From contig CAWJZO010000001.1 of the NCBI GenBank assembly GCA_963847375.1, forward strand, positions 1,083,904 through 1,147,903: 64,000 bases of DNA. Direction: 5' to 3'. Made by a program: the position numbers and the translations under genes. The stretch is from an uncultured Chloroflexia bacterium (GTDB lineage Bacteria > Chloroflexota > Limnocylindria > QHBO01). The notes under the pieces are model-generated. The model had not been told where the DNA came from. It made no database searches and was given only the letters and a program-made list of their open reading frames with translations. Numbering within the stretch: position 1 is the stretch's first letter; each line of letters begins with the position of its first letter. This document shows positions 666-16,712 of this stretch, in pieces.

Positions 666-1307
666 CTACAGGTAGCCGAGGTCGCGGAGCCGGTCGGTGA
701 CCTCCGACTCCTCGTCCTCGGTGTACGCGGCGTCGGCGCCCGCCGGGAACGGCTCGGCCGCGGTGAGGTATCCGAGCTCCTCCAGCTTGCTCACGATCCG
801 GTCCACCGACGCGTCAGGCCCATCGGCGCCGTCGGTTCGAATCGTGAGCTCCGGGCGCTCGGGCGGCTCGTATGGATCGTCGACGCCGGTGAGGCCGGTC
901 ATCGTGCCCTCGCGGGCACGGCGGTAGAGGCCCTTCGAGTCACGCGCCTCGAGGGCGTCAAGCGTGGCGTCGAGGTAGACCTCCACGAAGCGCCCGACGC
1001 GTCCACGAACCTCGTCGCGCACGGCCCGATACGGGCTGATCGCCGCGGCGATCGCCACGACGCCGTTCCGGGTGAGTAGCTCACAGACCCAGCCGATGCG
1101 GCGGACGTTCGAGTCACGGTCCTCCTTGCTGAACGAGAGGCCGGCGGACAAGTGCCTCCTCACCTCATCGCCGTCGAGGACCTCGACCCGGTGGCCACGG
1201 CCAGCGAGACGCTCGGCAAGTGCCCGCGCGATCGTCGACTTGCCCGCGCCGGACAGCCCTGTCAGCCAGACCGTGAATCCGACGTCGGTCGCGCTCGAGG
1301 TCACCAT
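666..1307 (-). CDS. cysC: Adenylylsulfate (APS) kinase
   Basis: The internal Met start gives [34 protein letters not shown]..., with the Walker [10 protein letters not shown] and conserved APS-kinase blocks ([62 protein letters not shown]). A 4-nt overlap with the upstream gene suggests translational coupling. Confidence 0.9.
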
Positions 1308-2677
1308 GCGAGCGCCCGTCCACGGAGTCCATGGGGGACCGTCAGCCCGAGCGCTTCGCACAGCGTCGGCGCGATGTCGTAGATGTCGACCGTGCCGAGG
1401 TCGCGCCCGCCGAGGTCGGCGCGCGGGTCGCGGTACACGAAGATGCCTTCCTGGGCGTGGTTGGCCTCGTCCGGGCCGGTGTCGTTCTCGAACGTCCAGA
1501 TGCTGTCGAATCCGACGCTGCCGACGGACCGCCACTCGAGGTCGCCGAAGTAGATGATCAGGTCCGGCGCGATATTGCGGACCTCCCGATACAGATCCTC
1601 CGGTCGGTGGCCCACCGTCCCGATCGGCGCTCCGTCGGGGTCCGTGATTGTGGCGAGGCGGTCGATCAGCTCCTGCCGAACCCTGTCAACGTCCTGCTGA
1701 GGGATCACCCCCTCGGGCTCACGCCCGGCAACGTTGAGGAAGAGCCGGCCATAGTATCCGCCGGACGCCCATGCGCGGGTTTGCGGCCAGTCGATCTCGC
1801 AGTCTTCGAGCGGAGTGACGGCCGACGGCCGCTCCTTGAGGACGAGATAGCCCTCGTCGATGAGCCACTCGTTGATGCAGATGCCGCCGGCCATGCTCCG
1901 CGCACCGTGGTCGGAGGCGACGACGATGATCGTGTCATCGTCCACCCGCTCCAGCAGACGGGCGACACGCCGATCGACGTGGACGTGGTAGTCGTGAACC
2001 GCGTCGGAGAAGTGGGTGCCGGGCTCGTACTTCGGGTGATCGGTGGCCATGTACTTCCAGAAGGCGTGATGGATGCGATCGACCCCCATGTCGACCATCA
2101 TGAAGAAGTCGTAGCGGGCCCGATCGAGGAGGCGCTCCGCCACCTCGAAGTGGTGATCGGCGAGGCGGTAGATGTCGCGCAGGATACGGTCCTTGTCCTC
2201 TGAGCGGAAGTTCGGCACGTCGACGAGGAACTCTTCGCCAAGCCACTCGGCAATCTCCGCCTTTAGCTCCGGCGGATGGGTGTATTCGCTCTTCGCACTC
2301 GGCGTGAGGAAGCATCCGACCATCTCGCCGTTCACCGGACGGGGAGGGTAGCTCTGGGGGACCGAGAGGACGCCCACCCGGCCGCCGGCGCGGCTGACGA
2401 GGTCCCACATCCGGTCGGCCTTCACCGACGTCCCGTTCGCGATCGTCATCCGGTCGTACGAGTGGTCGGCTCGGTTGCGGAAGCCGTAGAACCCAAGCTC
2501 CCCGGGGTCGCGGCCGCTCATCATCGCGGACCACGCCGGCACGGTGATCGCCGGGATCGTGCTGCTCATCCGGCCATAGGCGCCGGTCTCCATCAGCCCG
2601 CGGATCGTCGGCAGGTCGTCTCTCCACGCGTCGAAGACGAGCTGCGGCGTCGCGCAGTCGAGGCCGACGACGAGCAT
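1301..2677 (-). CDS. Type I phosphodiesterase/nucleotide pyrophosphatase (NPP) family protein, paralog 1
   Basis: Start at internal ATG 2675-2677 ([15 protein letters not shown]...). Motifs [27 protein letters not shown] and ...VASDHGAR... fit PF01663-like alkaline-phosphatase-superfamily phosphodiesterases. Confidence 0.75.
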
Positions 2678-2914
2678 GCGACGCGCCACATCGCCGTTCA
2701 CCCGGCCACCCTCGGAACGGCGGCGCGCATCGCTGCTGCCCTGGCGGGTCGGGTGGGTGTCTCTCTCGGGGGCGCATTCCCCATGTGCGGCGGCAATCCG
2801 AGCGGCACGTTCTTCTCCTCGCGCATCAGCGGACACCACCGATCAGCACGGTCAACGTTCCTGGGAGGGCGGCCATGATAGCGCACGAGCGGTCCGGCCG
2901 CGAGGGCCGCCGCC

Positions 2915-3769
2915 TCACAGCGACCACTCCTCCAGCCGCAGCCCGGTGAGGGTTCGGAGCCGCTCGACGTCGTCACGAAGCTCGTCGCGGAGCGCCTTGC
3001 GGAGGGTCGGGTCGAGCTCGGGCCGGGCGACCCGTCGAGAGAGCTGGCCACGAGCCCGCTTTCCGGCCTCGACGAGCGGCCGCGGCAGGTGCCGTCCGAT
3101 CCGCGTCGCGCGTGCGGCCTCGAGGATGTGCCCGAGCCGATTCGTCCGCGCGCGGCGGTTGGCGACGTTGGCCTTCGTCGCCACGTCGAATTCGAACGGC
3201 TCGAGCTCGAGGAAGTCGGTGACGGCGCGCAGCGCGTCATCCGGGCCTGCCTCGAGGGACTCGGTGGTCATGACATGGATCCGCTCGATCGGGTAATGCG
3301 GGAGGTACTGGTCGAGCTGGTAGGCGTAGCGACTCTGGTCGACGTAGACGTTGCCGTGCAAGTCGGCGAACGCCTCGCTCAGTGGGCGGTCCTCGCGATG
3401 GCGGAGGTACTCGTGGAGGTACTGCGACACGGTTCGGGCGATCGGGTCGCGGACGATGTAGATGAGCCTCGCGTTGGGAATGAGCCGATGCATCCTCTCC
3501 GGCACCCCGGCGCGGTGCGGAAACTTCGTGTATCCGGGCGATGCCTCCCCTCGCACCGGCGCGTCGGGGTCGAAGTGCGCCTCGTACCACTCGACCGGCC
3601 GATCGGCGTTGCGATCGGTGAAGTAGTGGATCTCCTTCGGCTGCGACATCGCGACGGCGGGATGCTGATCGAGGTAGGCGTGGAGGCTCGTCGTTCCCGA
3701 CTTCATCGCGCCGATGATCACGAGGTTGGGCAGGGCCCCCACCGAGCCCCGGCGTGCGGTCAGCCTCAT
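2915..3769 (-). CDS. PAPS-dependent sulfotransferase
   Basis: 5'-PSB motif NLVIIGAMKSGTTSLHAYL and 3'-PB motif YIVRDPIARTVSQY (RDP). The start ATG at 3767-3769 overlaps the TGA of the upstream gene (ATGA). Confidence 0.85.
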   Translation of the reverse strand: MRLTARRGSVGALPNLVIIGAMKSGTTSLHAYLDQHPAVAMSQPKEIHYFTDRNADRPVEWYEAHFDPDAPVRGEASPGYTKFPHRAGVPERMHRLIPNARLIYIVRDPIARTVSQYLHEYLRHREDRPLSEAFADLHGNVYVDQSRYAYQLDQYLPHYPIERIHVMTTESLEAGPDDALRAVTDFLELEPFEFDVATKANVANRRARTNRLGHILEAARATRIGRHLPRPLVEAGKRARGQLSRRVARPELDPTLRKALRDELRDDVERLRTLTGLRLEEWSL

Positions 3770-5334
3770 CGGGGGCTCGCAATGCCGGAGCGCAGTGGCC
3801 GCTCGAGCGACGCGCGCAACAGGTTCACGTAGTGGCCGTCGTCGACCGCGGTGGCGGAGAGGCGAGACGACTCGCGAACGGCGCGGTGCGCCCACGCCAG
3901 CCGAATCAGCGGGCCGACGACGTCGCTGCCGATGCCGAGGCGGTCGATGTACGCGCCGACGGCCTCGACCAGGATCTCGTCCCGCTCGAGCGCGTCGAGC
4001 AGCCGCGCCGGACGCATCGCGAAGCGCCGGACCCGGGCCCGGTCGATCGCGTGCGAACGCGCGAAGTGGAAGAGGTCCCAGAGCGGCAGGCCGTCAGGGG
4101 TGGCCGCCTCCCAGTCGAGGAACGCGATCCGGCCATCGGGCCGCCGGAGGGCGTTCAGGGTCGTGGCATCGCCGTGCATGAGCACCATCGGGATCCCCTC
4201 GGACGCATGGACGATCGCTCGCGCCGAGTCACGCAGGCGATCGCGCTGCTCCCGGGTCAGCGCGTAGATCCGCTCGACTGCCCCCACCACGTCCTCGACG
4301 ATCGCGGCGAGCGCCGTCGCGCGCTCGCCGCCCCGGCTCGCGCTGTTCGCCGCGAGGTCGGTCAGCCAGCGATAGGCGGCGGCCGCGTCCGCGCGATCGG
4401 GGCGCGAAGCCGCGATCCTTCCATCGAGCGCGCTCTCCCCGACGATGCGCAGGCCCCCATGCTCGCCGCCGAACGCCACGACTGGAGCACTGCCCGGGGG
4501 CACGATGGCGTCGCGCGCGATGCGACGGAGGATCCGCTCCTCGTTCTCGAGGCGAGCGTTGTGGACCGGATCACGGGTCGTCTTCACCACGAACTCCGGC
4601 CGGGCCGCGCCAGGTCCGAAGAGGTAGAAGATCAGCTTCCGCGAGCTGTACCGCCCGCGTGCCGAGAGCCCGAAGCGGTGACGTCGCAGATCGACGCCGT
4701 CGGCCGCCGCGATCTCGACGACATAGGCGGGGAGCCTTCCCTGGCCGGTGGCGTCCGCCCGCCCGGCGAGGAGGCCGGTCCGGCGACGGGAGGCGAGGTC
4801 GGGGGCCAGTTGATCGAGCACGCGGAGGCCGCGTGGCAGGCTCGGCACGCTGATCCGTCGCTGGACGAAGTAGCGTCGGATCGCCGCCTCGTCGGCCGGG
4901 ACCGCCGAGCGGGCCTCGCCGCGCGCGGGCGTGAGCCAGAAGCGGTCGACTCGCCCGAGGCCCGCCGTCCTGAGGGCCGCCTCGATCGGGTCGCGCCCCT
5001 GCACCTCCACGTAGACACGTCCACCAGGGCGCAGGGCCCGTGCGATCGCCGCCAGAGCGTCGTCGCTGATCGGTCGCTCGACGCCGTCGGTGACGTAGAT
5101 GAGGTCAACCGATGTCGGATCCAGGACGGCGAGGTCTGAGGCCGTCACCACCCGGACCCGTCCCGAGATCCGCTCGAGCGTCGCACGCGCTGCAGGCGAT
5201 GGCGCACCGACGCAGACGACCTCGTCGAGCTCGAGCGAGTCGAGCAGATAGGTCCACGCCGCGCCGGCGGCCGAGTCCCGGACGTTGCTGCCGACCGCCG
5301 CCGTGATCCTGGCCGCACCGGGCTCGGAGCTCAT
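3766..5334 (-). CDS. Two-domain protein: N-terminal class-I SAM-methyltransferase-like fold with degenerate motif I, fused to a C-terminal aminoglycoside-phosphotransferase (APH/ChoK/WaaP-like) kinase domain
   Basis: N-terminus: VVCVGAPSP...VRVVTASD...VDLIYVTD...LRPGGRVYVEV resembles MTase motifs I/II/III. C-terminus: Brenner motif LMHGDATTLNAL and DWE (IAFLDWEAATPDGLPLWDLFHF), typical of APH-fold small-molecule or sugar kinases. Confidence 0.7.
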   Translation of the reverse strand: MSSEPGAARITAAVGSNVRDSAAGAAWTYLLDSLELDEVVCVGAPSPAARATLERISGRVRVVTASDLAVLDPTSVDLIYVTDGVERPISDDALAAIARALRPGGRVYVEVQGRDPIEAALRTAGLGRVDRFWLTPARGEARSAVPADEAAIRRYFVQRRISVPSLPRGLRVLDQLAPDLASRRRTGLLAGRADATGQGRLPAYVVEIAAADGVDLRRHRFGLSARGRYSSRKLIFYLFGPGAARPEFVVKTTRDPVHNARLENEERILRRIARDAIVPPGSAPVVAFGGEHGGLRIVGESALDGRIAASRPDRADAAAAYRWLTDLAANSASRGGERATALAAIVEDVVGAVERIYALTREQRDRLRDSARAIVHASEGIPMVLMHGDATTLNALRRPDGRIAFLDWEAATPDGLPLWDLFHFARSHAIDRARVRRFAMRPARLLDALERDEILVEAVGAYIDRLGIGSDVVGPLIRLAWAHRAVRESSRLSATAVDDGHYVNLLRASLERPLRSGIASPR

Positions 5335-6893
5335 GGACGAGCCCCGAACATGCGCCGACCGATGCGCGATCGCAGCAGGGCCGGGAACGTATCACCGACC
5401 CGGAGCACGTCGCGATTGAGGGTGACCACGGCGAGCGTCACGACCGTCACGAAGGCCATGTGGACGGCCAGCGGGAGATCGGCGAGTGCGGCGACGATCG
5501 CGAGGAAGACGACCCCCATGACGATCACGACGTAGACGCGCAGTGTTGCGCGCTCGAAGACGCTGATCCCGGTCGAGAGGCGAAGCCCGGCCTGCTTGAG
5601 CACGTTGTGGACCACCAGGGTCGCGGTCGTGCCGATGGCGGCTCCGAGCGCGCCGAACTGCGGAATCAACAGGAGGTTGAGGACGACGTTGGTGACGGCC
5701 GCCGCGAGGTTCAGGGAGACGATGTACCGCAGTCTGCCGACCACCTTCAGCGTCAGTCCATTGAACCCGAGGGCCACATTGAAGTAGTACCCGAAGGAGA
5801 GCAGCGCAAGGTAGGTGGCCGACTCGCGATATCGCTCCTCGTACAGGAAGACCGTAAGCGGCTCGGCCAGGGAGAACGTCACCGCGAAGATCGGGAAGGA
5901 GAAGACTGCCATCCAGGTCGCGGTGCGCCAGTACAGCCGGTTGATGCCATCGCGGTCGCCCCTCGCGAAGAACCGGGATGCGAGCGGTGTGAACAGCAGG
6001 GCGAAGCTCGTGAAGACGACCTGGTTGAGAAGCGCCGGCTGGTGGACCACCCGGAACGCGGCCACCTCGGTCGTGCCCTGGAAGTACTCCAACAAGATGA
6101 CGTCCGACGCAGCGAGGACGACGAAGACGAGGTCCGAGCTCAGCAGGGGGAGGGCGAACCCGAAGACTTCGCGAGCGGGTACGACGATGCCGCCAGACCG
6201 CAGGTGGTCGATGAGGCCGCGCGAGACGAGCAGCCTCCACAGGATCACGCTGTACACGACCACGAGGATCAGCCCCGCGGCGACGTACCCGGCAGCCAGG
6301 ACCTCGACGCCGCTGCCGGACGCGATGAGCAGTCCCACCGCGGCGAGCTTCAGCAGCGGGCCCAGCAGGTGCTTGCGGACGAACACCGCCCAGGCGTCGC
6401 CGAACACCGCGAACATCCCGATGAGCAGGCCGTCGTAGGCCTGGATGGGTGCGAGCGCGGCCAGGATGACGAGGACGGTGACGGCCTCCGGGTCGTCGAG
6501 GAGCGTTCCCGCCAGCACGCCCTGAAGCCCGATGACAACGGCCACGAATGCGATCCCGAGTCCGATCACGGTGCCGAAGGCAAGGACGATGGTCCCAAAG
6601 AGGCGGTCGTACTGGCCACGCTCCTCGTAGATCGGAACGAACCGGGTGATCGCACGGTCGAGGCCGAGCGTCACGATGCTCTCGCCGACAGCGACGATCG
6701 AGAGGGCGTAGGCAAACGCGCCGAAGCCCTCCTCGGAGAGGTAGCGAACGATGAGCACCTGGATGACGAAGTTGATGAGCAGCGAGATGCCGCGCCCTCC
6801 GGTCAGGAGCGTCGAGCCACGAAGCTGGCGCGAGGTCTCGTCCGAGTCGTCGGGTGCGATCGTGGGGCCGGCGTCCTCCCGCGGGGAGGTCAT
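5331..6893 (-). CDS. Polysaccharide biosynthesis protein / Wzx-like flippase (MOP superfamily)
   Basis: A 520-aa polytopic membrane protein with about 14 predicted hydrophobic helices and a Polysacc_synt-like N-terminal region (LLTGGRGISLLINFVIQVLIVRYLSEEGFGAFAYALSIV). ATGA overlaps on both sides. Confidence 0.85.
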   Translation of the reverse strand: MTSPREDAGPTIAPDDSDETSRQLRGSTLLTGGRGISLLINFVIQVLIVRYLSEEGFGAFAYALSIVAVGESIVTLGLDRAITRFVPIYEERGQYDRLFGTIVLAFGTVIGLGIAFVAVVIGLQGVLAGTLLDDPEAVTVLVILAALAPIQAYDGLLIGMFAVFGDAWAVFVRKHLLGPLLKLAAVGLLIASGSGVEVLAAGYVAAGLILVVVYSVILWRLLVSRGLIDHLRSGGIVVPAREVFGFALPLLSSDLVFVVLAASDVILLEYFQGTTEVAAFRVVHQPALLNQVVFTSFALLFTPLASRFFARGDRDGINRLYWRTATWMAVFSFPIFAVTFSLAEPLTVFLYEERYRESATYLALLSFGYYFNVALGFNGLTLKVVGRLRYIVSLNLAAAVTNVVLNLLLIPQFGALGAAIGTTATLVVHNVLKQAGLRLSTGISVFERATLRVYVVIVMGVVFLAIVAALADLPLAVHMAFVTVVTLAVVTLNRDVLRVGDTFPALLRSRIGRRMFGARP

Positions 6894-8242
6894 CGGCCGC
6901 GAGCCGCTCGCTTCAGCGACCGCTCCACGTAACGCCGCCAGATGAGCCAGGTCACCTCCCGTTGGACCTCATCCAGGCTCCGGTCGGTGTCGACGACGGC
7001 GGCGTTCGGGAGCCGATCACTCAGTGCGAGGTACGCCTGCCGCTGGGACTCGAGCCTTTCCGGATCGTGCTCCTGCTTTCGGGCGTAGAGCACCGGACCT
7101 GGAGCGTCGAGGGTGACGACAAGATCGGGTCGCGGCACTGTGTGGGCGAGCGCCCAGCGGCGCAACCGCGTGGTCATGGGCGCGTTCGTGCTTTCCCGCA
7201 GGAGCGCGTCGTACCCGAAGCGGTCGTAGACCACGAGCCGTCCCCGCCGACGATGGAAGGCGGCACCCGCGTACCTGCGCCACTGCCGAATGAGATACCC
7301 CGAGGTGCGGGCCAGGTGCTCGATGGGGCCGCGGGGAGATCGCCGCCGTGCCTGGCCTCCGCCGTAGAGACCCATGTACACCGGCCGGGTGGGAAAGAAG
7401 AAGGTCTCCTCGAGATGGGCAGCCATCGACGACTTTCCGGTCCCGTCCGGACCGAGGAACGCGACGCTCAATCCCGGCTCGACAGCGAAGCGGCGAACCT
7501 TCGTGAGTCGCCGCGCCGCGCCGCGCGTCAGGCGTCGGGCGAGCGGCCGGCCGACGCGCCAGCGCCGCGCGTCGAGGATGTCCTGGCCCGCGCCGAGAAG
7601 CTCGCGCCACCGACCCTGCGCCGCGGCGGCGATCGCCCGCCCGGGACTCCACTCGACCGGCGCATTCGGCGCGAACCAGGCGGCCAGCGGTCCCTCGCCC
7701 GTTGCCTGCGCCGCGAGCTCGCGGAGGACGGTCGCATGGCGGTCGGGCAGATCGCGGCGATCGAGGATGCAGTGGAGGAGCAGCGCCCAGAAACGATCTT
7801 CGGCGGCCAGTCGCCAGGTGCCGTGATCCGAGACTCGCCGGGCGAGGCACGCGTCCGCGGTGCCGGTTTCGATCGTCGCGTGAGGACCGAACGACAGCTC
7901 CGTGACGACGTCGAACTTCACGAACGAGCCGGTGTCCCGGTCGTAGGCGACGTAGAACCGGTGGCTGCCGCGTCCCCAGGCGGCAAGTTGGAGGTAGCCG
8001 AGACTTCGAAGAAGCTCGCTGGCACGGGGGAGATCTCGCTTCGAGATGAGGAGGTCCACGTCCTCCCCCGTGACGACGGGCGTCGTCTCGCCGCGCAGCA
8101 GGCACCAGCGGACCTGGTCCTGGTCGAGCTCGGCGAAGGTGCGCCGGATCGCCTCGAGGTCGCTCGCTTGCCTCGCCGCGGGGCCGATCTCGGGCGGCGC
8201 GGCGCCTCGGGGTCGCGGGGTCATCGGCCGATGACGATACAT
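6890..8242 (-). CDS. Fusion protein: N-terminal Pol-beta-type nucleotidyltransferase-like domain plus C-terminal P-loop NMP-kinase-like (thymidylate/APS-kinase fold) domain
   Basis: N-terminus: LRGETTPVVTGEDVDLLIS aligns with the NTase hG[GS]...[DE]h[DE]h motif. C-terminus: Walker A LGPDGTGKSS, a DRF/DRY-like VVYDRFGYD, and a lid DLVVTLDAPGPVLYARK as in TMK/APS kinases. The overlapping plus-strand ORF 6854-8263 is rejected. Confidence 0.6.
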   Translation of the reverse strand: MYRHRPMTPRPRGAAPPEIGPAARQASDLEAIRRTFAELDQDQVRWCLLRGETTPVVTGEDVDLLISKRDLPRASELLRSLGYLQLAAWGRGSHRFYVAYDRDTGSFVKFDVVTELSFGPHATIETGTADACLARRVSDHGTWRLAAEDRFWALLLHCILDRRDLPDRHATVLRELAAQATGEGPLAAWFAPNAPVEWSPGRAIAAAAQGRWRELLGAGQDILDARRWRVGRPLARRLTRGAARRLTKVRRFAVEPGLSVAFLGPDGTGKSSMAAHLEETFFFPTRPVYMGLYGGGQARRRSPRGPIEHLARTSGYLIRQWRRYAGAAFHRRRGRLVVYDRFGYDALLRESTNAPMTTRLRRWALAHTVPRPDLVVTLDAPGPVLYARKQEHDPERLESQRQAYLALSDRLPNAAVVDTDRSLDEVQREVTWLIWRRYVERSLKRAARGR

Positions 8243-8357: not shown

Positions 8358-8633
8358 TCACTCGCCGCGATGACGAATGATGAGGAACGCCGCGAATCCG
8401 GCGACCGCGACGAAGAGGAGGGTGGCGATGGTGACCTCGATGTCGTCGGGCACCAGATCGGCCCGGATGGCGACGGCCACCGCTGCGGCCACGCCACCAA
8501 TCAGTGCGCCAATTGCCAGCTTGACCACCGCACCATGCCACCCACCGTGGCTGAGCCGAAGCCCGACGAGGGTCAGGCCAACGAGCGACGCGCCAAGTAT
8601 CATGCCGATGACCGCGTTCTGCACCGGGCACAT
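8358..8633 (-). CDS. Small integral membrane protein (3 TM), unknown function
   Basis: Hydrophobic helices (IGMILGASLVGLTLVGL, AIGALIGGVAAAVAVAI, IATLLFVAVAGFAAFLII). The start is uncertain; alternatives are at 8603 and 8687. Confidence 0.45.
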   Translation of the reverse strand: MCPVQNAVIGMILGASLVGLTLVGLRLSHGGWHGAVVKLAIGALIGGVAAAVAVAIRADLVPDDIEVTIATLLFVAVAGFAAFLIIRHRGE

Positions 8634-8650
8634 CCTACCGGCCGATCGAC

Positions 8651-10633
8651 ATGGGCACGCCGGTCCGGGACCGACGCCGCTCGACATATGGAGATCGGCA
8701 CATCGTGAGACGTCTGGCCATCCTGCTGGTGACCGTCATGCTCCTGGCGAGCATCGGTATCGCCTTGGCGCTCGCATCCAACGAGACGAGTGGCCCGACG
8801 GCGAATCCATCCTCGGTTGTCCCCTCCTTCTCGCCCGGCCCCCTCGGCGGCCCTGTGGGTGAGGTGCCTGGGGCGCCGGAGTCGTTCGCGTTCGGAGAGG
8901 GCGGCTCGCCCGACCCCGCGGGCACGGGAGCGCAGAGCCGGCTCTGGTTCAATGACGGCAGCTGGTGGGGCGTGTTCCTGACGAGCAGCAGCGCGGATCA
9001 GAGGATCTTCCGGCTCGACGCGGCGTCGCTCACCTGGGTCGACACCGGCGCCGTGGTGGACGATCGACCCTACGCCAAGATCGACGCGCAGTGGGACGGG
9101 GAGCGCCTGCTGGTCGCGAGCGCCGGGGAGGAAGCCGACGAGCGCCACGCGCTTCGGGTGGATCGGTTCAGCTACAACCCGGCCTCGGGCGAATACCGGA
9201 GGAACGCGAACTTCCCGGTGCCGGTGACCGCCGCGGGGGTTACGGGAGCGACGCTGGCACGCGCCGCCGACGGGCGGCTCTGGGTCGCCTATCGCGACGG
9301 CGACCGACTCATCCTGGACCATTCCCTGGAATCCGACCTCTCGTGGCACGGCCCGATCGCGCTCGACGTCGCGACCGGCCCCGTCGACGCGGTCGCGTTG
9401 GCAGCCGTGGGACGGCGCATCGGCCTCGTCTGGACGCTGACGACGGGAGACTCCCTGCATGTTGCCTGGCTCGACCCTGCGCTGGGGACGGACGGGTGGT
9501 CGGCCGCGGCCCCCGTCCCGGTTCCGGGGCTCGAGTTCGGCGAGGACGAGATCGGGATCGCCGTCGATCGCTCGCCCGGTGCCGAACGCCTGTACGTCGG
9601 GCTCAAGACGAACGCTGGCGAGACGGCCGACCGCAGGCGCCTCGCGCCGCAGGTGGTCGTGGCGGAGCTCCGTCCCGGAGAGGATCCGGCGACGTATCTC
9701 GTCGGCCGCGTCGAGGACCAGCACGGGGGGCCGAGCCTTGTCGTCGATGGCGAGGCTCGATTGCTTCATGTCGTCATGGAGGCGCCAGCCGGCGGAGGCA
9801 CGATCTACCGCAAGACCGCCTCGCTGGACCGTCTCGAGTTCGGTGGCGGTCTCGGGCAGGCGCTCATCCCGGCGACCGAGGCGCTGCCTGGTCTCGGGTC
9901 GCCCACGGCGACGAAACAGAGCGTCGACGGGGGCAGCGGGTTGGTCGTCGCCGCGACGGATCGCGGGGTCGATCGATGGGGCTTCGGCTCACTGGGTGTG
10001 GCTCCCGTCACGGCGGAACCGCCACAGGGCCCAGACGACAGGGCCATGCTCGTCAATTACACCTTCAACGGGCTTGCCGTGGGCGATGATCCCCCGGGAT
10101 GGGAGGTCGACGGCGATCCGCTCCCGGCGTTCACGGTCGTGAGCCTCACCGGATCCGACAGCTCAGCCCGTCTGACCGCGACGACAGCCGATGCGAGGAC
10201 GTGCGCGCGATTTGCCGCCGTCGAGGGCGACGTGCTACGGGCGGGCGCGGACGTGCTGTTCAACGAGCCCTCGACAGGTGACATGAAGCTTCTTCAGCTG
10301 CGAGGGCGCGAGGGAGAAGTCGCCTCGATCCGGGTGCGCGAGGGCGAGGTGGTGTATGCGGACGGCGACACCCGAGTGCGGAGCGGGCTCGTTCTTGAGC
10401 CGGGTCGCTGGTACCGTGTTGTGCTGGGGCTCGATCTTGCCGCGCGGACATTCGGCGTCCAGGTCCGCGACGCGGTCGATGATGCGATCCTGTTGGAAGA
10501 TGCCGGCCTCGCCTGGGCGGCGGAGGTCGAGGCTGTCGACCGCGTGTGTGCCGAGCTGTCGCCGCAACCGGGCCTCGAGCTCTATCTCGATGAAGTGAGG
10601 GTTCGGTCGCGGCTGGCGGAGGGTGAGGGCTGA
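8651..10633 (+). CDS. Secreted/membrane-anchored BNR(Asp-box)-like beta-propeller protein, paralog 1, with a C-terminal lectin/LamG-like domain
   Basis: N-terminal signal anchor. Conserved SRLWFNDGSWWGVF...LDAASLTWVDTG...RFSYNPASGEY block shared with the ORFs at 14586 and 24427, plus degenerate Asp-box-like S/TxDxxxW segments. Confidence 0.7.
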   Translation: MGTPVRDRRRSTYGDRHIVRRLAILLVTVMLLASIGIALALASNETSGPTANPSSVVPSFSPGPLGGPVGEVPGAPESFAFGEGGSPDPAGTGAQSRLWFNDGSWWGVFLTSSSADQRIFRLDAASLTWVDTGAVVDDRPYAKIDAQWDGERLLVASAGEEADERHALRVDRFSYNPASGEYRRNANFPVPVTAAGVTGATLARAADGRLWVAYRDGDRLILDHSLESDLSWHGPIALDVATGPVDAVALAAVGRRIGLVWTLTTGDSLHVAWLDPALGTDGWSAAAPVPVPGLEFGEDEIGIAVDRSPGAERLYVGLKTNAGETADRRRLAPQVVVAELRPGEDPATYLVGRVEDQHGGPSLVVDGEARLLHVVMEAPAGGGTIYRKTASLDRLEFGGGLGQALIPATEALPGLGSPTATKQSVDGGSGLVVAATDRGVDRWGFGSLGVAPVTAEPPQGPDDRAMLVNYTFNGLAVGDDPPGWEVDGDPLPAFTVVSLTGSDSSARLTATTADARTCARFAAVEGDVLRAGADVLFNEPSTGDMKLLQLRGREGEVASIRVREGEVVYADGDTRVRSGLVLEPGRWYRVVLGLDLAARTFGVQVRDAVDDAILLEDAGLAWAAEVEAVDRVCAELSPQPGLELYLDEVRVRSRLAEGEG

Positions 10634-11586
10634 TGCGAATACTCGTGACGGGCGCTGCCGGCTTCGTCGGTTCTCACCTCGCGGAGCGGCTCCTCATCGA
10701 CGGCCATGAGGTTGTCGCTCTCGACTGCTTCACCGACTACTACCCACGAGCTGTCAAGGAGCGCAACCTGGCGGGGCTGATGCGTTCGCCGGGCTTTCGG
10801 TTCCACGAGCTCGACTTGCGCACCGACCCACTGGATGCCGCGCTCGAGGGCGTGGACGTCGTGGTCAACCAGGCGGCGATGGCTGGGCTCATGCGGAGCT
10901 GGACCGACTTCGACAGCTACGTCAGCTGCAACCTGATCGGCCTTCAGCGCCTGGTCGACGCCTCCCGTGACGTGCGGCAGTTCGTCCACATCTCGACCTC
11001 GTCGGTGTATGGCACGGATGCCGTCGGCGACGAGGACACTCCGACGAGGCCGACATCTCCGTACGGGGTCACGAAGCTCGCGGCCGAGAAGCTGCTTCTT
11101 GCGCAGGTCGCCGTGCACGGCTTCCCCGCGACGATCCTTCGCTATTTCTCGATCTACGGGCCACGCCAACGTCCGGATATGGCGTACCACATCTTCATCG
11201 AGGCCCTCATGGACGGCCAGCCGATCACGGTCTATGGCGACGGGCTGCAGTCACGCTCGAACACGTTTGTGACCGACGCCGTCGCGGGCACTGTGGCGGC
11301 GATCGACGGAGCGCGCGTCGGAGAGGTCTATAACATCGGCGGCGGCCAGGAGCTGGGGCTGTTGGAGGCCATCGGCATCATCGCCGACGAGCTGGGCGCG
11401 CAACCCACGATCCGCCATGAGCCGGCACGACCCGGCGACCAGCGTCGTACGTGGGCCGACACGTCCCGAGCGCGCGAAGCCTTCAGCTACCGCCCACTCG
11501 TCGAGCCGGCACACGGGCTCGCCGAGCAGGTCCGCTGGCAAGCCGGGTTGAGGTCCCTGGAGCCGGCCAGATCCTCAGGCGCCTGA
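10633..11586 (+). CDS. NAD-dependent nucleotide-sugar epimerase/dehydratase (SDR family)
   Basis: MRILVTGAAGFVGSHLAERL (Rossmann GxxGxxG) and catalytic YxxxK (SPYGVTKLAAE). ATGA overlap with the upstream propeller gene. Confidence 0.85.
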   Translation: MRILVTGAAGFVGSHLAERLLIDGHEVVALDCFTDYYPRAVKERNLAGLMRSPGFRFHELDLRTDPLDAALEGVDVVVNQAAMAGLMRSWTDFDSYVSCNLIGLQRLVDASRDVRQFVHISTSSVYGTDAVGDEDTPTRPTSPYGVTKLAAEKLLLAQVAVHGFPATILRYFSIYGPRQRPDMAYHIFIEALMDGQPITVYGDGLQSRSNTFVTDAVAGTVAAIDGARVGEVYNIGGGQELGLLEAIGIIADELGAQPTIRHEPARPGDQRRTWADTSRAREAFSYRPLVEPAHGLAEQVRWQAGLRSLEPARSSGA

Positions 11587-12195
11587 GCGGCGCGCGACGG
11601 CCATCACGGTCCGCGCGAGAATCCAGATGTCCAGCCGGAACGACATCCGCTCGATGTAATCGATGTCGAGTCGAGCCCGCTCATCGAAGGTCGCCTCGTT
11701 CCGACCGGTCACCTGCCAGAGGCCGGTGAGGCCGGGCATGACCTCGAGGCGCTCGGTGTGCCACAGCTCGTACGTGCTCGCCGCGAACGACGTCGGTCGC
11801 GGGCCGACGAGTGACATCTCCCCACGGACCACGTTGAGGACCTGCGGCAGCTCATCGAGGCTGGTCTTCCGGAGGAATCGACCCACACGGGTCACGCGCG
11901 GATCATCGATGACCTTGAAGTCCGGAGCCGGAACGATGCTCAGGTGCTGGAGGCTCGCCTTCAGCTCCTCGGCGTTCGTCACCATGGTCCGGAACTTGTA
12001 CATCCGGAACCTGCGGCCGTGGCGGCCGGTGCGCTTCTGGGCGAAGAGGATCGGGCCCGGCGAATCGATGCGGATCGCCACCGCGCAGATCGCCAGGGCG
12101 ATGGCGATCAGGGGAAGGAATGCGATGCATGCTGCGAGGTCGAATGCTCGCTTGCCGATCGCGTAGCGAGGCCGGAACGAGAGGACATGCGGCAT
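11575..12195 (-). CDS. Initiating phosphoglycosyl transferase (bacterial sugar transferase, PglC/WbaP C-terminal type)
   Basis: Single N-terminal TM, then the conserved KFRTM...DELPQ...GEMSLVGPRP motifs of the undecaprenyl-phosphate sugar-1-phosphate transferase family. Confidence 0.85.
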   Translation of the reverse strand: MPHVLSFRPRYAIGKRAFDLAACIAFLPLIAIALAICAVAIRIDSPGPILFAQKRTGRHGRRFRMYKFRTMVTNAEELKASLQHLSIVPAPDFKVIDDPRVTRVGRFLRKTSLDELPQVLNVVRGEMSLVGPRPTSFAASTYELWHTERLEVMPGLTGLWQVTGRNEATFDERARLDIDYIERMSFRLDIWILARTVMAVARRSGA

Positions 12196-12198
12196 CGC

Positions 12199-12846
12199 TC
12201 AACCGGTCCTCTCGGAGGACTCTTCTCGCTGGTCCGTCAGGGGTGGCACGAGGCGAACCGGAGCGCGATCGGTGCCGAGCTCTCCGATCGGCCGGAGGTT
12301 GGCCACGAGTGCGCCCGTCGTTGCCCCGCCGCTCGGGAACTCGACGGCCTCGACTCGGTCGAGGGCGGGATCGCCCGGAATGGCGATCCGCAGCCGGCCG
12401 ATAAGCTGCTGCGCCGATTCCAGGCTGGACTCCGGCAGGACGACATAGACGCTACCTTCGATCGACAGCACCTGGTCGATGCTGCGGACCATCAGGGGCA
12501 GTGCTCCGAGGCTGCCGGGCGCCGGTGCCAATCCATCGGCGTTTGTGACGTCGATGCCGGGGAAGCGCATCAGGACGAACGAACGCTCGAAGCGACGCGC
12601 TCGGTCCAGCTCGCGACGGAACGCATCCCATGACCGATGGGACGCGCCAGCCGGCCGCTCCGATCGGCTCGACATCCTCCCCCCGTAGAAGGCGGTCATC
12701 AGACCGCCGAGCATGAGGCCGATGACGCCGAGCATCCCGGCGGTGACCGTCAGGGCTCCGCTCATGCCGGCGTAGTACCCGATGGCGACGCCGACGACGA
12801 CAGCCGAGATACCCAGAGTCAGATTGGACAGCACCGTCCGCTTCAA
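12199..12846 (-). CDS. Membrane-anchored degenerate GGDEF-domain protein (I-site RxxD retained, GG[DE]EF replaced); putative c-di-GMP receptor or regulator
   Basis: Two N-terminal TM helices. The cytoplasmic part, FRRELDRARRFERSFVLMRFPGIDV...RSIDQVLSIEGSVYVVLPESSLESAQQLIGRLRIAI, parallels GGDEF-domain blocks (RARRyg.plsllmiDiD ... RESDxxaRyGGEEFvvllPetdleeA...aerir) but lacks the catalytic GGDEF motif. Confidence 0.55.
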   Translation of the reverse strand: MKRTVLSNLTLGISAVVVGVAIGYYAGMSGALTVTAGMLGVIGLMLGGLMTAFYGGRMSSRSERPAGASHRSWDAFRRELDRARRFERSFVLMRFPGIDVTNADGLAPAPGSLGALPLMVRSIDQVLSIEGSVYVVLPESSLESAQQLIGRLRIAIPGDPALDRVEAVEFPSGGATTGALVANLRPIGELGTDRAPVRLVPPLTDQREESSERTG

Positions 12847-12856
12847 GAGACGACTC

Positions 12857-14281
12857 CTACTCCACCTGGAGCGGCGCGTACGCCTCGATGACGGTAGCCG
12901 TCGAACTGCGCTCGGGCGATGTCTGGCCGATGGGCTCCGTCTCGCCGGTCGCCAGCGCGCCCACCCGAAAGCCTCGCCCGAACGCGGAGTAGTCGAATCC
13001 GAGGGCAGTCATCTGATCCGGGATCAGGGCGCCTCGCCCGTCGACGAGGACCGGGGTCCGCACGGCTGCCCGGACCACGCTCCAGTCGAGGTTGAGGAAT
13101 TCGGGCCACTCGGTGACGAGCCCGATCGCATCCGCACCCTCGACCGCTTCGAGGGCGCTCGACACGACCTCGAGGCCGGGCACCAAGTCGGCCGATCGGA
13201 CCCGCGCCGACTCCATCGGGTCGTAGGCCACGACGGTGGCACCCCCGGCGAGCAGGTGCCGGGCGATGTCGAGCGCCGGAGCGTCGCGCAGGTCGTCCGT
13301 CAGCGGCTTGAACGTCAGGCCCAGTAGCGCCACGCGCTTGCCCTCGAGGGAGCCGCCGGTCAGCTCGCGCACATTCGCGACGAAGTCGGTCCTCTGCCGA
13401 TGGTTGATCTCGTCCACCGCAGACAGGAGAGGCGACGGCACTCCGGCCAACGTGGCCGACTTCACCGTCATCGTCACCTGGTTCGGCAGGCATGACCCGC
13501 CGAACCCGACGCCCGCACGCAGGAACCGGCCTCCGATGCGCGAGTCGAACGCCATTCCCGCGACGACCTGATCGACCTGCGCGCCATACGCGTCGCAGAG
13601 CGCGGCGAGCTCGTTCGCGAAGCTGATCTTCGTTGCCAGGAAGAGGTTGGAGCCGAGCTTGGCGAAGGCGGCGTCGATCGCGGACATCGTCAGCACCGGC
13701 GCGGTGCTCCACTCGTACAGCGCGTTCATCCGCTCCACGCCTCGGCCGTCGGGGTCGTCGATGACACCGAAGATGACTCGCTCGGCCTCGAGGTAGTCGC
13801 GGATGGCGGCGCCTTCGCGTGTGAACTCCGGATTCACGACGGCGGCGATCGGCTCGCGGCCGGCCTGTTCCCGGATCGAGCGCAGGAGTCGCGGAAGCTG
13901 CCGGATGAAGTCCGGCGGCAGTGTCGAGCGCACGGCAAGCACGGCATCGTCCGCCATGTGTGGGACGACTTCGCTCAGGCATGCGAGCATCGTCTCAGTC
14001 TGCCAGCCCCCGTTGCCGTCGTGGGTGCCGACCGCCACGATGACCACGTCGGCACTCGCCGCGGCTTCTCGCCCGGAAGCCGAGAACGCGAGGTGATCGG
14101 ATTCACGCTGGCGGGCGACCATCTCGTGCAGCCCCGGCTCGTAGAACGGGACCGCTCCGTCCTTCAGCGCATCGAGACGAGCCGCATTGACCTCGACCCC
14201 GATCACGTGATGACCGCGTTCCGCGAGGCACGCGGAGGTCACCAATCCTACGTAGCCGAGACCGAATACTCCGACTTGCAT
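12857..14281 (-). CDS. UDP-glucose/GDP-mannose 6-dehydrogenase family protein (nucleotide-sugar dehydrogenase)
   Basis: MQVGVFGLGYVGLVTSACLAERGHHVIGVEV (NAD-binding) and the catalytic region GFGGSCLPNQV (the conserved Cys-containing GGxCxxKD-like block of the family). Confidence 0.85.
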   Translation of the reverse strand: MQVGVFGLGYVGLVTSACLAERGHHVIGVEVNAARLDALKDGAVPFYEPGLHEMVARQRESDHLAFSASGREAAASADVVIVAVGTHDGNGGWQTETMLACLSEVVPHMADDAVLAVRSTLPPDFIRQLPRLLRSIREQAGREPIAAVVNPEFTREGAAIRDYLEAERVIFGVIDDPDGRGVERMNALYEWSTAPVLTMSAIDAAFAKLGSNLFLATKISFANELAALCDAYGAQVDQVVAGMAFDSRIGGRFLRAGVGFGGSCLPNQVTMTVKSATLAGVPSPLLSAVDEINHRQRTDFVANVRELTGGSLEGKRVALLGLTFKPLTDDLRDAPALDIARHLLAGGATVVAYDPMESARVRSADLVPGLEVVSSALEAVEGADAIGLVTEWPEFLNLDWSVVRAAVRTPVLVDGRGALIPDQMTALGFDYSAFGRGFRVGALATGETEPIGQTSPERSSTATVIEAYAPLQVE

Positions 14282-14585
14282 TGGGCAGCAACCCCCGCTT
14301 TCCCTTCTGGGCACGAAGAGTGGTCAGCTCCCCCTGGGTCGAGGGCTTGACCCGGGGCGGAGAGGGGACACTTATTAGACCCGGAAGTACTGGATAGGAC
14401 CCCGAAATATCCGGGGTGAGATGACCTGAGTAATGTACGGGCCGGGACCGGAGTTTACAATCCCTTACTGGCGGCTTATCGCTGGCTTATGTGCACAAAT
14501 CCTTCCAATACAGCACAAACCGTTGCCCGGCGGCACCGACAAACCGTGGGTCGAGGGCGATTCCGGGGGGAAGGACCATCGACCG

Positions 14586-16613
14586 ATGCCCAGAGCCGGG
14601 GTACCATGCGCCGGGTTCATTCGTCCTCATCGGTACCGGGGGGTTCCCTCCTTGTTGCGCATTCGAACGTTCCACCTCAGTCTGGTGGTCGGGCTCCTGT
14701 GGTCGATTCTCGCCATCGGGCCGGCCGTCGCCGCCCCCGGAGATATCGGCCTGGAAGGCCCGTCGTACTCCGGTGCTGCCGCCGAACCAACCGGTGAGAA
14801 GCCCGAGAGCAAGACGTGGTTCGCCGATGGCGTCTGGTGGGGCAGCCTGTGGGACACGGCGAGCTCGCGCTACGAGATCTTTCGCCTGAACGCGGCCGGC
14901 ACGTGGACGTCGACGAACGTGGCGCTCGATGGGCGCGCGAACAGCAGAGCGGACACGCTGTGGGATGGGACGAGACTGTACGTCGCTAGCCACGTGTTCA
15001 GCGAGTCACCGAGCAGCGGGTTCCCCTCGCACCTGTATCGGTTCAGCTACAACCCGTCGACCGACACCTACTCGCTCGACAGCGGGTTCCCGCAGCAGAT
15101 CAACAACGTGCGGTCCGAGTCCCTCGTCATCGACAAGGATTCGACGGGCCGGTTGTGGGCGACGTGGGTCCAGGGCAATAGCGGCAGTCGAACTGTGTTC
15201 GTGAACCGCACACTGGGCGGCGACGTGAGCTGGGGGACGCCGTTCACGCCTGCGGTCTCGGGAACGCAGGTTGCCAATGACGACATCTCGTCGGTGATCG
15301 CCTTCGGCGGCAACAAAATCGGCGTCTTCTGGAGCAACCAGGACGAGGATACGTTCTACTTCGCCTCGCACCAGGACGGGGCGGCCGACACCGCCTGGGG
15401 ATCGGTCTCGACCGTCTTTCCCGGAAGTAGCAACGGGGACGACCATATGAACCTGAAGTCGTTGCACACCGACGGCAGTGGACGCGTCTTCGCCGTCGTG
15501 AAGACGAGCCTCACCGGGCCTTCGACCCCCTCGATCGTTCTGCTCGTTCGCAGTGCGGCCGGGTCATGGCAGTGGCACACGATCTGGACGAAGCAAGTGA
15601 TGCTCACCAGGCCGATCGTCCTTCTCGATACCGAGAATGGGCGGATCCACGCGTTCGCGTCGGACGAGGGCGGTGGCCGGGTCTACACGAAGACGAGCCC
15701 GATCGCCTCGGTCGCGTTCCCGAGCGGGCTCGGGACGACGGTGATGCAGGACGCGTCGCAGAACAACATCAACAACGCCACGTCGACGAAGCAAAACGTC
15801 ACCAGCGCGAGCGGGCTTCTCGTCCTGGCCTCGAACCAGTCCACGAAGCGCTACTGGCACCACTTCGACCCGCTCGGCGGCGGCGGCAGCCCGTCGGGAC
15901 CAACGGCCAGCTTCACCGCCAGTCCGACCGGCGGCACCGCGCCGCTGGAGGTCGACTTCACCGACACGAGCGCCGGCGCACCTACCGCCTGGGCCTGGGA
16001 CTTCACCGATGACGGCGTCGTCGACTCCAATGCCCAGCACCCGAGCCATACCTACACCACCGCCGGCAGCCACACCGCTCGCCTGACGGTGAGCAATGCC
16101 GGCGGGTCCGACGCCACTACCCGCACGATCACCGTCAACCCGGCCGGCGGAGGCGGCGAGCCCATCGCCCCCAGCGATGACACCTACGCCGACTCCGGCG
16201 CGCCGACGGCGATCAAGGGCAACGCGAGGGACCTGCGCGTGCGAAGTGCCTCGAAGCAGCTGCATACCTACCTCAAGTTCACGGTCAGCGGCGCGGGCGC
16301 GGTGGACGGCGCCACCCTGCGGCTGTTCGTGACCGAGTCCAGCGTCGATGGCGGCAGCCTTTACCTCGTGCCCATCAACACGTGGAGCGAGGCCAGTCTC
16401 AACTGGTCGAACAAGCCGGACCCGAGCGGCGGGCCGATCGACACCCTCGGAGCGGTCGCGGCGAACAACTGGGTCGAGCTCGACGTCAGCAGCGTCGTGA
16501 CCGGCGACGGCACCTACAGCTTCGTGCTCATCAACGCCAGCAACGACGTCGCACGCTTCAGCTCCAGCGAGGCCGCCACCGGCGACCCCGAGCTCGTCCT
16601 CAGCGCGCCCTGA
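14586..16613 (+). CDS. Secreted BNR/Asp-box-like beta-propeller protein, paralog 2, with a PKD domain and a C-terminal DNRLRE-like carbohydrate-binding domain
   Basis: A good SD (GGGGGAAGGA) precedes the ATG at 14586, then a long signal peptide. Shared KTWFADGVWWGSLW...RFSYNPSTDTY block. PKD motif ...ASFTASPTGGTAPLEVDFTDTS...WDFTDDG...HTYTTAGSHTARLTVSN.... C-terminus: WSEASLNWSNKP (DNRLRE-like). Confidence 0.75.
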   Translation: MPRAGVPCAGFIRPHRYRGVPSLLRIRTFHLSLVVGLLWSILAIGPAVAAPGDIGLEGPSYSGAAAEPTGEKPESKTWFADGVWWGSLWDTASSRYEIFRLNAAGTWTSTNVALDGRANSRADTLWDGTRLYVASHVFSESPSSGFPSHLYRFSYNPSTDTYSLDSGFPQQINNVRSESLVIDKDSTGRLWATWVQGNSGSRTVFVNRTLGGDVSWGTPFTPAVSGTQVANDDISSVIAFGGNKIGVFWSNQDEDTFYFASHQDGAADTAWGSVSTVFPGSSNGDDHMNLKSLHTDGSGRVFAVVKTSLTGPSTPSIVLLVRSAAGSWQWHTIWTKQVMLTRPIVLLDTENGRIHAFASDEGGGRVYTKTSPIASVAFPSGLGTTVMQDASQNNINNATSTKQNVTSASGLLVLASNQSTKRYWHHFDPLGGGGSPSGPTASFTASPTGGTAPLEVDFTDTSAGAPTAWAWDFTDDGVVDSNAQHPSHTYTTAGSHTARLTVSNAGGSDATTRTITVNPAGGGGEPIAPSDDTYADSGAPTAIKGNARDLRVRSASKQLHTYLKFTVSGAGAVDGATLRLFVTESSVDGGSLYLVPINTWSEASLNWSNKPDPSGGPIDTLGAVAANNWVELDVSSVVTGDGTYSFVLINASNDVARFSSSEAATGDPELVLSAP

Positions 16614-16712
16614 GGCGGCTCGGCGCAAGGCACGCGGCGGCCTTCGGGCTACCATGACCCGCGGCCGTCCCGGCTCGGGCCGGCCGGCAACGTACATCCG
16701 AGCAGAGGGGCG

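Follow-up and report, generated by a model that had tools for sequence, protein, structure and literature searches.

The pairing of a kinase with a nucleotidyltransferase (NTase) has precedents in which the two activities serve glycan decoration or donor synthesis. In the LicA/LicC/LicD phosphocholine pathway, and in systems of the LicD/FKRP types, an APH-fold kinase and an NTase-fold enzyme install a phosphodiester-linked glycan substituent with release of a nucleoside monophosphate (NMP). In PAPS synthase (ATP sulfurylase plus adenosine 5'-phosphosulfate (APS) kinase) and in Campylobacter Cj1416/Cj1415 (O-methyl phosphoramidate, MeOPN), nucleotidyl transfer and a P-loop nucleotide-kinase step yield an activated donor. 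The gene described here, designated T, encodes a Pol-beta-type NTase domain fused to a thymidylate kinase (TMK)-like P-loop domain, and lies in a 64,000-nt stretch of DNA from an uncultured Chloroflexia bacterium (the window), within a Wzx-dependent exopolysaccharide locus. T differs from the Lic proteins in having no Pfam LicD match (Pfam scan, E≤10), in carrying an extra P-loop kinase, and in that a LicC-type cytidylyltransferase is not consistently present. It differs from the donor-forming systems in that their nucleotidyltransferases are of other folds and that PF01583 (APS kinase, CysC) does not match T even at E≤10.

The closest experimental precedent for T, by analogy, would be the PsmK/PsmN pair of the pseudomycoidin lasso-peptide cluster of Bacillus pseudomycoides. 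PsmN, an "uncharacterized nucleotidyltransferase" modelled on ANT(2'') and dependent on an essential DxD motif (PMC6993621), is required for the attachment of one or two hexoses to a phosphate that the kinase PsmK places on serine (PMC6993621; review PMC8498205), by a mechanism that was still unresolved in 2025 (PMC11912497). In both systems a kinase is paired with an NTase, and the ANT(2'') structural neighbourhood is their sole documented common ground. PsmK/PsmN, unlike T, act on a peptide serine, use an HPr-kinase-like kinase and are two separate proteins. Both folds of T are well known and the kinase-plus-NTase logic is precedented, and T itself would represent an uncharacterised NTase-kinase tailoring or licensing module of polysaccharide export. 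Literature and database searches returned no characterised protein, solved structure or publication on a fusion of this kind or on its association with Wzx and APH kinases, in agreement with the original prediction, which knew of no characterised enzyme of this architecture. Among the literature on PF14907, NTP_transf_5 and combinations of an NTase fold with a TMK there was a single incidental mention, in a phosphonate survey where a phosphoenolpyruvate (PEP) mutase is flanked by a "thymidylate kinase" and a PF14907 NTase (PMC8942020).

The open reading frame (ORF) is real, lies on the minus strand and contains in its translation all motifs quoted for it in the original prediction (Table 1). 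Public gene calls start at M7, six codons downstream, and give a protein of 444 aa. The composition of T is of the coding type, like that of the neighbouring genes (GC at third codon positions 0.83, at second positions 0.55, in a window of ~70% GC). Its TGA stop (6892-6890) overlaps the start codon of wzx (ATGA), and the junction between wzx and the following APH-fold kinase gene is also an ATGA overlap, both indicating translational coupling. T is cytoplasmic, with no transmembrane (TM) segments. The family is strongly basic, with a median isoelectric point of 10.2, and the linker helices of T reach 12. The AlphaFold2 model of full-length T, built from a 50-sequence family alignment, has a pLDDT of 88.8 and a pTM of 0.87.

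The N-terminal domain consists of a disordered segment (aa 1-20), a Pol-beta NTase core with a helical subdomain (aa 21-211) and basic linker helices (aa 212-256). PF14907 (NTP_transf_5, "uncharacterised nucleotidyltransferase") matches aa 60-161 of T at E 7.6e-7, a borderline match that scores 29.4 bits against a gathering threshold of 31.2 and takes in only profile positions 95-194 of 249. The same family is matched at E<0.01 by 29 of 50 members of the T family, and PF14907.13 is listed in the precomputed annotation of P0001, a protein identical to T (P-numbers denote proteins and L-numbers loci). A profile search of PDB sequences with the N-domain gave no match. In fold comparisons, made here with Foldseek against the PDB, a separate AlphaFold2 model of aa 1-252 (pLDDT 88.4) matched best to ANT(2'')-Ia (E 2e-4), followed by the lincosamide adenylyltransferase LnuA (E 8.6e-4), the MenT1 toxin (E 1e-3) and two "putative nucleotidyltransferases" (JHP933-like 4ok0 and TM1012), all five at a probability of 1.00; Pol mu, terminal uridylyltransferases, CutA and OAS came next. 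The model thus identifies the domain as having a Pol-beta-superfamily NTase fold, as had been predicted. A non-NTase fold and a sulfotransferase-like fold, named beforehand as the outcomes of an HMM or structure search that would speak against the prediction, did not appear.

The third rank of MenT1 among these neighbours, and the very basic character of the protein, raise the question of a nucleic-acid or conflict enzyme: a polynucleotide-kinase-like domain and an NTase that heal or tail RNA ends, or a MenT/AbiE-like toxin. We attach almost no probability to such a role. PADLOC defence-family models match neither T nor its neighbours, no antitoxin-like partner was seen, a search for plasmid homologues of T found none, and the polysaccharide context and the fusions to Wzx and to glycosyltransferases (GTs) described below are constant features. 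On the lack of PADLOC matches and plasmid homologues the defence or toxin reading was rejected.

Conservation was read from the 50-member alignment and from 116 representatives of 50%-identity clusters. Like ANT(2'')-Ia and LnuA (PDB 5kqj, 4xje, 4fo1), which nucleotidylate sugar hydroxyls of aminoglycosides and lincosamides, T combines an NTase core with a helical subdomain and has the DxD motif and a third carboxylate: the [DE]h[DE]h pair of the Pol-beta fold reads D61-V-D63-L, and the third carboxylate is D111. It differs from them in sequence (12-14% identity, TM-score ~0.5), in the residues L-R that stand for G[GS], in the fused kinase, and in a context of polysaccharide assembly, not resistance. 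The hG[GS] motif as such is absent, since the position reads L49-R50-G51 without a serine. Here R50 is the conserved residue (108 of the 116 representatives, against just 45 for G51), and the spacing of 10 residues to the DxD motif is kept despite the replacement of G[GS] by the conserved L-R. D or E is found at position 61 in 114 representatives and D63 in 113, while position 111 is D or E in 97 and His in 13. In the helical subdomain a helix motif is retained (D149 in 109/116, H157 in 110/116, D161 in 107/116) that probably forms the acceptor or base site. Across the family the N-domain is as strongly conserved as the kinase domain. Because the carboxylates and further active-site residues are conserved and only G[GS] is missing, the NTase looks catalytically competent. 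The suspicion that it might be degenerate, raised from the missing Gly-Ser, finds no echo in the 116 distant representatives.

The C-terminal domain was aligned by phmmer (PDB sequences; aa 260-430 of T) with Aquifex TMK at E 0.004, and the top 50 Foldseek matches of the whole T model were TMKs exclusively (E 4.5e-6, target TM-score 0.55-0.69). PF02223 matches aa 333-430 at E 5.9e-4, with 20 bits against a cutoff of 27 and with generic P-loop families matching as well; it is matched by 46/50 family members. The NCBIfam model TIGR00041 (dTMP kinase) gives E 2.8e-6 and 27.2 bits, against an equivalog cutoff of 83.25. T shares with the Tmk proteins of Aquifex (2pbr) and Thermus (5xt8) the fold, a GxDGxGKS P-loop, a DR[YF] motif and an Arg/Lys lid that comes after an LDxP strand. 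In the P-loop G267, G269 and K270 are invariant (116/116) and D266 is present in 110/116; R341 is again found in 116/116 and D340 in 114/116. The lid segment 'DLVVTLDAPGPVLYARK' contains D379 ('LDAP'; 113/116) and R388-K389 (A387-R388-K389), with R388 in 116/116, K389 in 99 and E391 in 106 of the representatives.

The part of the domain that would bind the NMP is different. In the HMMER alignment to Aquifex TMK the dTMP-binding 'YREPGGT' stands opposite 'GLY--GGG' in T and the helix after it is unrelated. Between strands 2 and 3, where TMKs have their NMP-binding segment, T has a single long helix (aa 306-332), and the family conserves Y289-M-G291-L, W321 and H330 in place of the dTMP-binding elements of TMKs. 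In TMKs these elements are the REPGG segment after strand 2 and an aromatic/Arg base-recognition helix. The C-domain of T therefore has a TMK-like NMP-kinase fold, as had been predicted, yet is not a thymidylate kinase, because it stays below both family cutoffs and lacks the dTMP-binding motifs. An ordinary thymidylate kinase with an inert N-terminal extension is nevertheless what public databases suggest: members of the family are named only "hypothetical protein" or, automatically (JGI), "thymidylate kinase", and TMKs are the best PDB matches in both sequence and fold. This reading is effectively refuted by the family scores, the unmatched REPGG and base-stacking regions, an N-domain equally conserved, a constant location in polysaccharide loci and the occurrence of two copies in some genomes. 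Stand-alone paralogues of the TMK-like domain alone (227-244 aa; L016 18866-19576, L044 1251-1985, L069 15092-15790 and L079 18504-19187; ~30-33% identity to the C-domain of T) share polysaccharide loci with full-length T.

The NTase-kinase architecture is conserved and widespread, and is no one-off. An initial homology search found 306 homologues, and the 120 listed measure 367-462 aa and cover 82-100% of the query (mostly ~90%). An exhaustive profile search, run over 1.84 billion cluster representatives, matched 11,149 of them at E≤1e-3 and at least 1,222 (50%-identity clusters) at E≤1e-30. Nearly all of the best 150 representatives span both domains, the few others being N-terminally truncated or split. 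The fusion is not "unusual" in the sense of rare, as the original prediction had it, but defines a large and taxonomically broad family. In a scan of one genome per species 125 relatives were found, and relatives occur in Chloroflexota, Actinomycetota (including the cultured Micromonospora and Dactylosporangium), Gemmatimonadota, Planctomycetota, Myxococcales (Myxococcota) and Acidobacteria (Acidobacteriota). Two copies of T are present in some genomes (L024 with L031; L022 with L060).

The neighbourhoods of T were compared by calling and clustering ORFs in 85 loci and annotating cluster representatives with Pfam. This crude calling recognised T in 61 of the 85, including 39 large loci that extend over 15 kb or more, and neighbour counts refer to those; as it also inflates N-termini, N-terminal "extensions" were counted only if confirmed in database proteins. 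Wherever the flank suffices, the T locus is a polysaccharide-assembly locus. Recurrent neighbours are GT2 (25/39 large loci), GT4, Wzx, Wzy, PCP/BY-kinase, Bac_transf, epimerase and polysaccharide deacetylase proteins. Genuine GNVR+AAA_31 proteins are separate genes beside T in 12/39 large loci, and T itself gives no match in the Pfam scan to the AAA_31/CbiA-type P-loop of polysaccharide BY-kinases (Wzc/CpsD type). Two families of APH-fold kinases, of ~500 aa and ~350 aa, recur, with at least one present in 23/39 large loci. The APH partners retain the catalytic Lys, the Glu, HxDxxxxN and D-W-E, and judged by these residues they are probably active kinases.

A role of T in sulfation or as an APS kinase, the latter a leaning of the original prediction, was rejected on the absence of a PF01583 match and on the distribution of sulfation genes, which are limited to 5/85 loci; separate PF01583 genes are present in L001, L002 and L003. 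A general link to phosphonates was likewise rejected, as a motif scan of all 85 loci for PEP mutase found none. Genes for the synthesis and attachment of 2-aminoethylphosphonate do occur upstream of one distant T locus (L004 1-6916): a split phosphonopyruvate decarboxylase, an aminotransferase, a cytidylyltransferase-type NTP_transferase and a CDP-alcohol phosphatidyltransferase. A transposase stands between them and the T locus.

In many organisms proteins of polysaccharide assembly are joined to T in a single polypeptide. Among the loci, T and the 350-aa APH kinase form one ORF in L061, L068 and L083, T is fused to GT2 in L022, and Wzx is fused to the 500-aa APH kinase in L003. Among the best 150 cluster representatives 17 exceed 600 aa. 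Nine carry a Wzx-like membrane domain, a label based on Polysacc_synt matches close to threshold, weak scores with a purpose-built Wzx HMM and the number of TM segments. These nine combine a Wzx-like domain with T (8-10 TM segments; P0121, P0142, P0246), with T and APH (P0143, P0151, P0194, P0200, P0248), or with GT9 and T (P0122). Further fusions are GT9 with T (P0125), T with APH (P0167, P0180, P0257), T with GT4 (P0209) and a deacetylase with T (P0261). Fusion of this kind puts T at the cytoplasmic side of the membrane, in physical association with flippase and APH kinase.

A flippase for lipid-linked glycans joined to a kinase-fold cytoplasmic domain is known from Mycobacterium tuberculosis, whose MOP-family protein MviN/MurJ has a catalytically dead, regulatory intracellular pseudokinase domain, and the Wzx+APH and Wzx+T(+APH) fusions resemble it in this arrangement. 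T and the APH-type kinase might similarly sense or consume nucleotides to gate or license export by Wzx, with the glycan left unmodified by T. Covalent fusion and the ATGA coupling around wzx would suit such a regulatory module, and the fast, joint divergence of T and APH around a conserved wzx could reflect co-adapting protein interfaces. We regard it as unlikely. The catalytic residues of all three enzyme domains are conserved (K270, R341 and R388 invariant; HxDxxxxN and DWE in APH), in contrast to a pseudoenzyme such as MviN/MurJ; T is also fused to glycosyltransferases or a deacetylase without a flippase; and Wzx lies within 10 kb in just 12/39 large loci.

The same fusions bear on another alternative, in which T and an APH-type kinase would make a soluble nucleotide-activated precursor and would not modify the glycan directly. 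Like NahK, AmgK and LicA, the APH-fold kinase would phosphorylate a sugar or alcohol; the NTase would couple the product to a nucleoside triphosphate, and the P-loop kinase would phosphorylate the nucleotide or recycle the NMP, a scheme parallel to those of PAPS synthase and Cj1416/Cj1415. Nucleotide kinases are the nearest relatives of the kinase domain of T, and the T+GT4, GT9+T and T+GT2 fusions would put donor synthesis beside donor use. The gene arrangement in the phosphonate survey also speaks for this reading, and the sulfotransferase and APS-kinase genes in the closest loci show activated-donor chemistry to be at work nearby. Fusion to a polytopic Wzx-like domain is hard to explain for a soluble precursor enzyme, however, and the dTMP/NMP-binding motifs of TMKs are missing from T. 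Sulfation genes stand beside T in only 5/85 loci and PEP mutase was found in none of them, and we know of no Pol-beta-fold enzyme that makes nucleoside diphosphate (NDP)-sugars. We consider this a possible but doubtful explanation.

The variation of T between close relatives is a further line of evidence. Locus L002, from a metagenome-assembled genome (MAG) of a Chloroflexia bacterium, was compared with the window (window 3766-8242 against L002 10001-14396). DNA identity is ~89% over window positions 8358 to 18240 and 86-97% over most of wzx, and drops to 45-68% over precisely two genes, T and the 522-aa kinase, with boundaries at the gene ends. At the protein level T is 51% and the APH kinase 47% identical, against 92% for Wzx and 95% for Bac_transf, epimerase and UDP-glucose dehydrogenase (UGDH); the remaining parts of the two loci are 84-95% identical. 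Averaged over other locus pairs, the identity of T lies ~5 points below that of its neighbours, and the identity of the APH partner tracks that of T (for example 61/61, 69/64 and 70/70, against 77-82% for the neighbours). In these sequence comparisons T and its APH partner thus behave like two cassettes that vary together and can be exchanged while the backbone machinery is conserved, as is expected of genes for a variable decoration or of tightly co-adapted partners.

We propose, with a probability of roughly 0.35, that T is a flippase-associated tailoring enzyme making a phosphate-linked decoration on exopolysaccharide units before export. By analogy with the systems above, T would be a bifunctional phosphotransfer enzyme, cytoplasmic and very basic, that serves an exopolysaccharide pathway of the Wzx/Wzy type. 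Its target at the inner membrane face, shortly before flipping, would be either the undecaprenyl-diphosphate-linked repeat unit itself or a substituent yet to be added to that unit; the basic charge of T would suit an anionic membrane or glycan substrate. In a first step the P-loop domain, with or without the APH-type partner, would install or extend a phosphate. The NTase-fold domain would then, by nucleotide chemistry, convert this phosphate into a phosphodiester-linked decoration. This could occur either by nucleotidylation of the phosphate, followed by displacement of the NMP by a hydroxyl in a ligase-like logic, or in the manner of LicD/FKRP, with an NDP-activated donor giving up its phospho-substituent and the NMP being released. 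The decoration would be a variable, strain-specific feature of the polymer, outside the backbone, and the divergence of T and APH around wzx fits a co-adapted pair specifying it.

Several points weigh against this proposal. Within 10 kb, APH kinases are absent in 16/39 large loci and Wzx in 27/39, so that the partnership of T, APH and Wzx is frequent, not obligatory. The usual substrates of TMK-fold kinases are nucleotide monophosphates, not glycans, and 13/116 representatives have His at the third NTase carboxylate. The acceptor and the nucleotide, and even which step comes first, are inferred. No phosphate-bearing polysaccharide is known from carriers of T, which are mostly uncultured MAGs.

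A more speculative version, which we hold to be improbable, has T, the APH-fold kinase and Wzx working together as a flippase-coupled "phospho-ligation" machine. In the lipid-linked repeat unit a hydroxyl of a sugar would be phosphorylated, the Pol-beta-fold domain would nucleotidylate this phosphate as DNA ligase makes AppDNA, and a second hydroxyl would displace the NMP to leave a phosphodiester bridge. Allelic T/APH cassettes would then yield strain-specific surface decorations. If true, this would be a previously undescribed enzymology of glycan phosphodiester formation, and would explain PsmN too.

Wzx/Wzy pathways are textbook knowledge, yet a large uncharacterised enzyme family is embedded in them and labelled in public databases as a housekeeping thymidylate kinase. 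That its members are repeatedly found in covalent fusion with a flippase and with APH kinases points to an unrecognised modification or licensing step at export. Should the phosphate-decoration proposal hold, phosphodiester-decorated exopolysaccharides would be predicted in major soil phyla, the divergent T/APH cassettes around a conserved wzx would serve as a marker of strain-level surface variation, and T would offer a mechanistic handle on PsmN-type NTases that glycosylate a phosphate. The cultured carriers Micromonospora and Dactylosporangium make the idea directly testable.

Table 1. Gene T, its domains and motifs, and other features of the locus (window coordinates)
Feature	Position	Strand	Remarks or basis
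T, fused NTase and TMK-like kinase	6890-8242	-	450 aa, ATG at 8242
N-terminal domain, aa 1-252	7487-8242	-	PF14907; AlphaFold2; Foldseek
NTase signature R50-G51-E52...D61-V-D63(-L-L-I-S)	8054-8095	-	D61 and D63, metal carboxylates
D111, third NTase carboxylate, strand 106-113	7910-7912	-	invariant in A1 alignment
Helix motif D149-x-F-W-A-L-L-L-H157-x-x-L-D161, helical subdomain	7760-7798	-	inside PF14907 match
TMK-like P-loop kinase domain, aa 257-450	6890-7474	-	phmmer, Foldseek, PF02223
Walker A / P-loop G264-P-D-G-T-G-K-S271(-S)	7430-7453	-	conservation in 116 representatives
D340-R341(-F342), equivalent of TMK 'DR[YFH]'	7220-7225	-	aligns with DRF of Aquifex TMK
Lid R388-K389-x-E391	7070-7081	-	conservation in 116 representatives
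Wzx-type flippase, 520 aa	5331-6893	-	PF01943 E 4.9e-20; 92% identical to L002 orthologue
APH-fold (ePK-like) kinase, 522 aa	3766-5334	-	homologous to Pfam-APH proteins of L002, L003
Sulfotransferase, variable accessory gene	2915-3895	-	PF13469 / PF00685
Type I phosphodiesterase / nucleotide pyrophosphatase family	1301-2839	-	PF01663 E 5e-41
Small hydrophobic ORF upstream of T	8358-8687	-	probable start near 8632; conserved in closest loci
Divergent protein, ~642-660 aa, family unassigned	8651-10633	+	probable start 8705
NAD-dependent epimerase/dehydratase	10633-11586	+	locus core
Bac_transf initiating phosphoglycosyltransferase	11575-12195	-	locus core
215-aa protein without assigned family	12199-12846	-	locus core
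UDP-glucose dehydrogenase family (UGDH)	12857-14314	-	locus core
PKD/CBM96 protein	14433-16613		upstream gene of locus
Second, shorter APH-fold kinase, 344 aa	16713-17747	+	cluster 7; representative PF01636 E 5.4e-14

The glycan-operon setting proposed for T in the original prediction is borne out by its neighbours in the window and by the synteny of sister loci, which identifies the core at 10633-14314 as the conserved part of the polysaccharide locus. The 522-aa APH-fold kinase carries the motifs K251, E265, H387-x-D389-x4-N394 and D407-W-E, and its PDB matches, to choline kinase, ABC1 and macrolide phosphotransferase, are weak. Its ~215 N-terminal residues are weakly methyltransferase-like (Methyltransf_11, E 0.016, aa 24-108). 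An identity as a WbdD-like protein (methyltransferase plus kinase; O-antigen chain terminator) is without sequence support. The shorter, 344-aa kinase belongs to the type that is fused to the C-terminus of T elsewhere (L061, L068, L083; P0143, P0167 and others), and with it the single flippase of the window is accompanied by three kinases and one NTase.

At the matching position of L002 the sulfotransferase is missing (an indel). Sister loci have genes for APS kinase, DHH phosphoesterase, sulfatase-family proteins and additional phosphodiesterases instead, and sulfation therefore looks like an accessory trait that varies in this polysaccharide. The small ORF between T and the divergent gene encodes ~90 aa with apparently 2-3 membrane helices and has no family match; it is 83% identical to L002 9675-10004 and in L002 and L003 the gene call has 88 aa, its end overlapping with the T start. 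The divergent ~650-aa protein gave no Pfam or PDB match. Its family is found in 16/39 large T loci and clusters with the PKD/CBM96 protein. One homologue has a faint alginate-lyase match, and the ~650-aa protein may be an unrecognised polysaccharide-processing enzyme.

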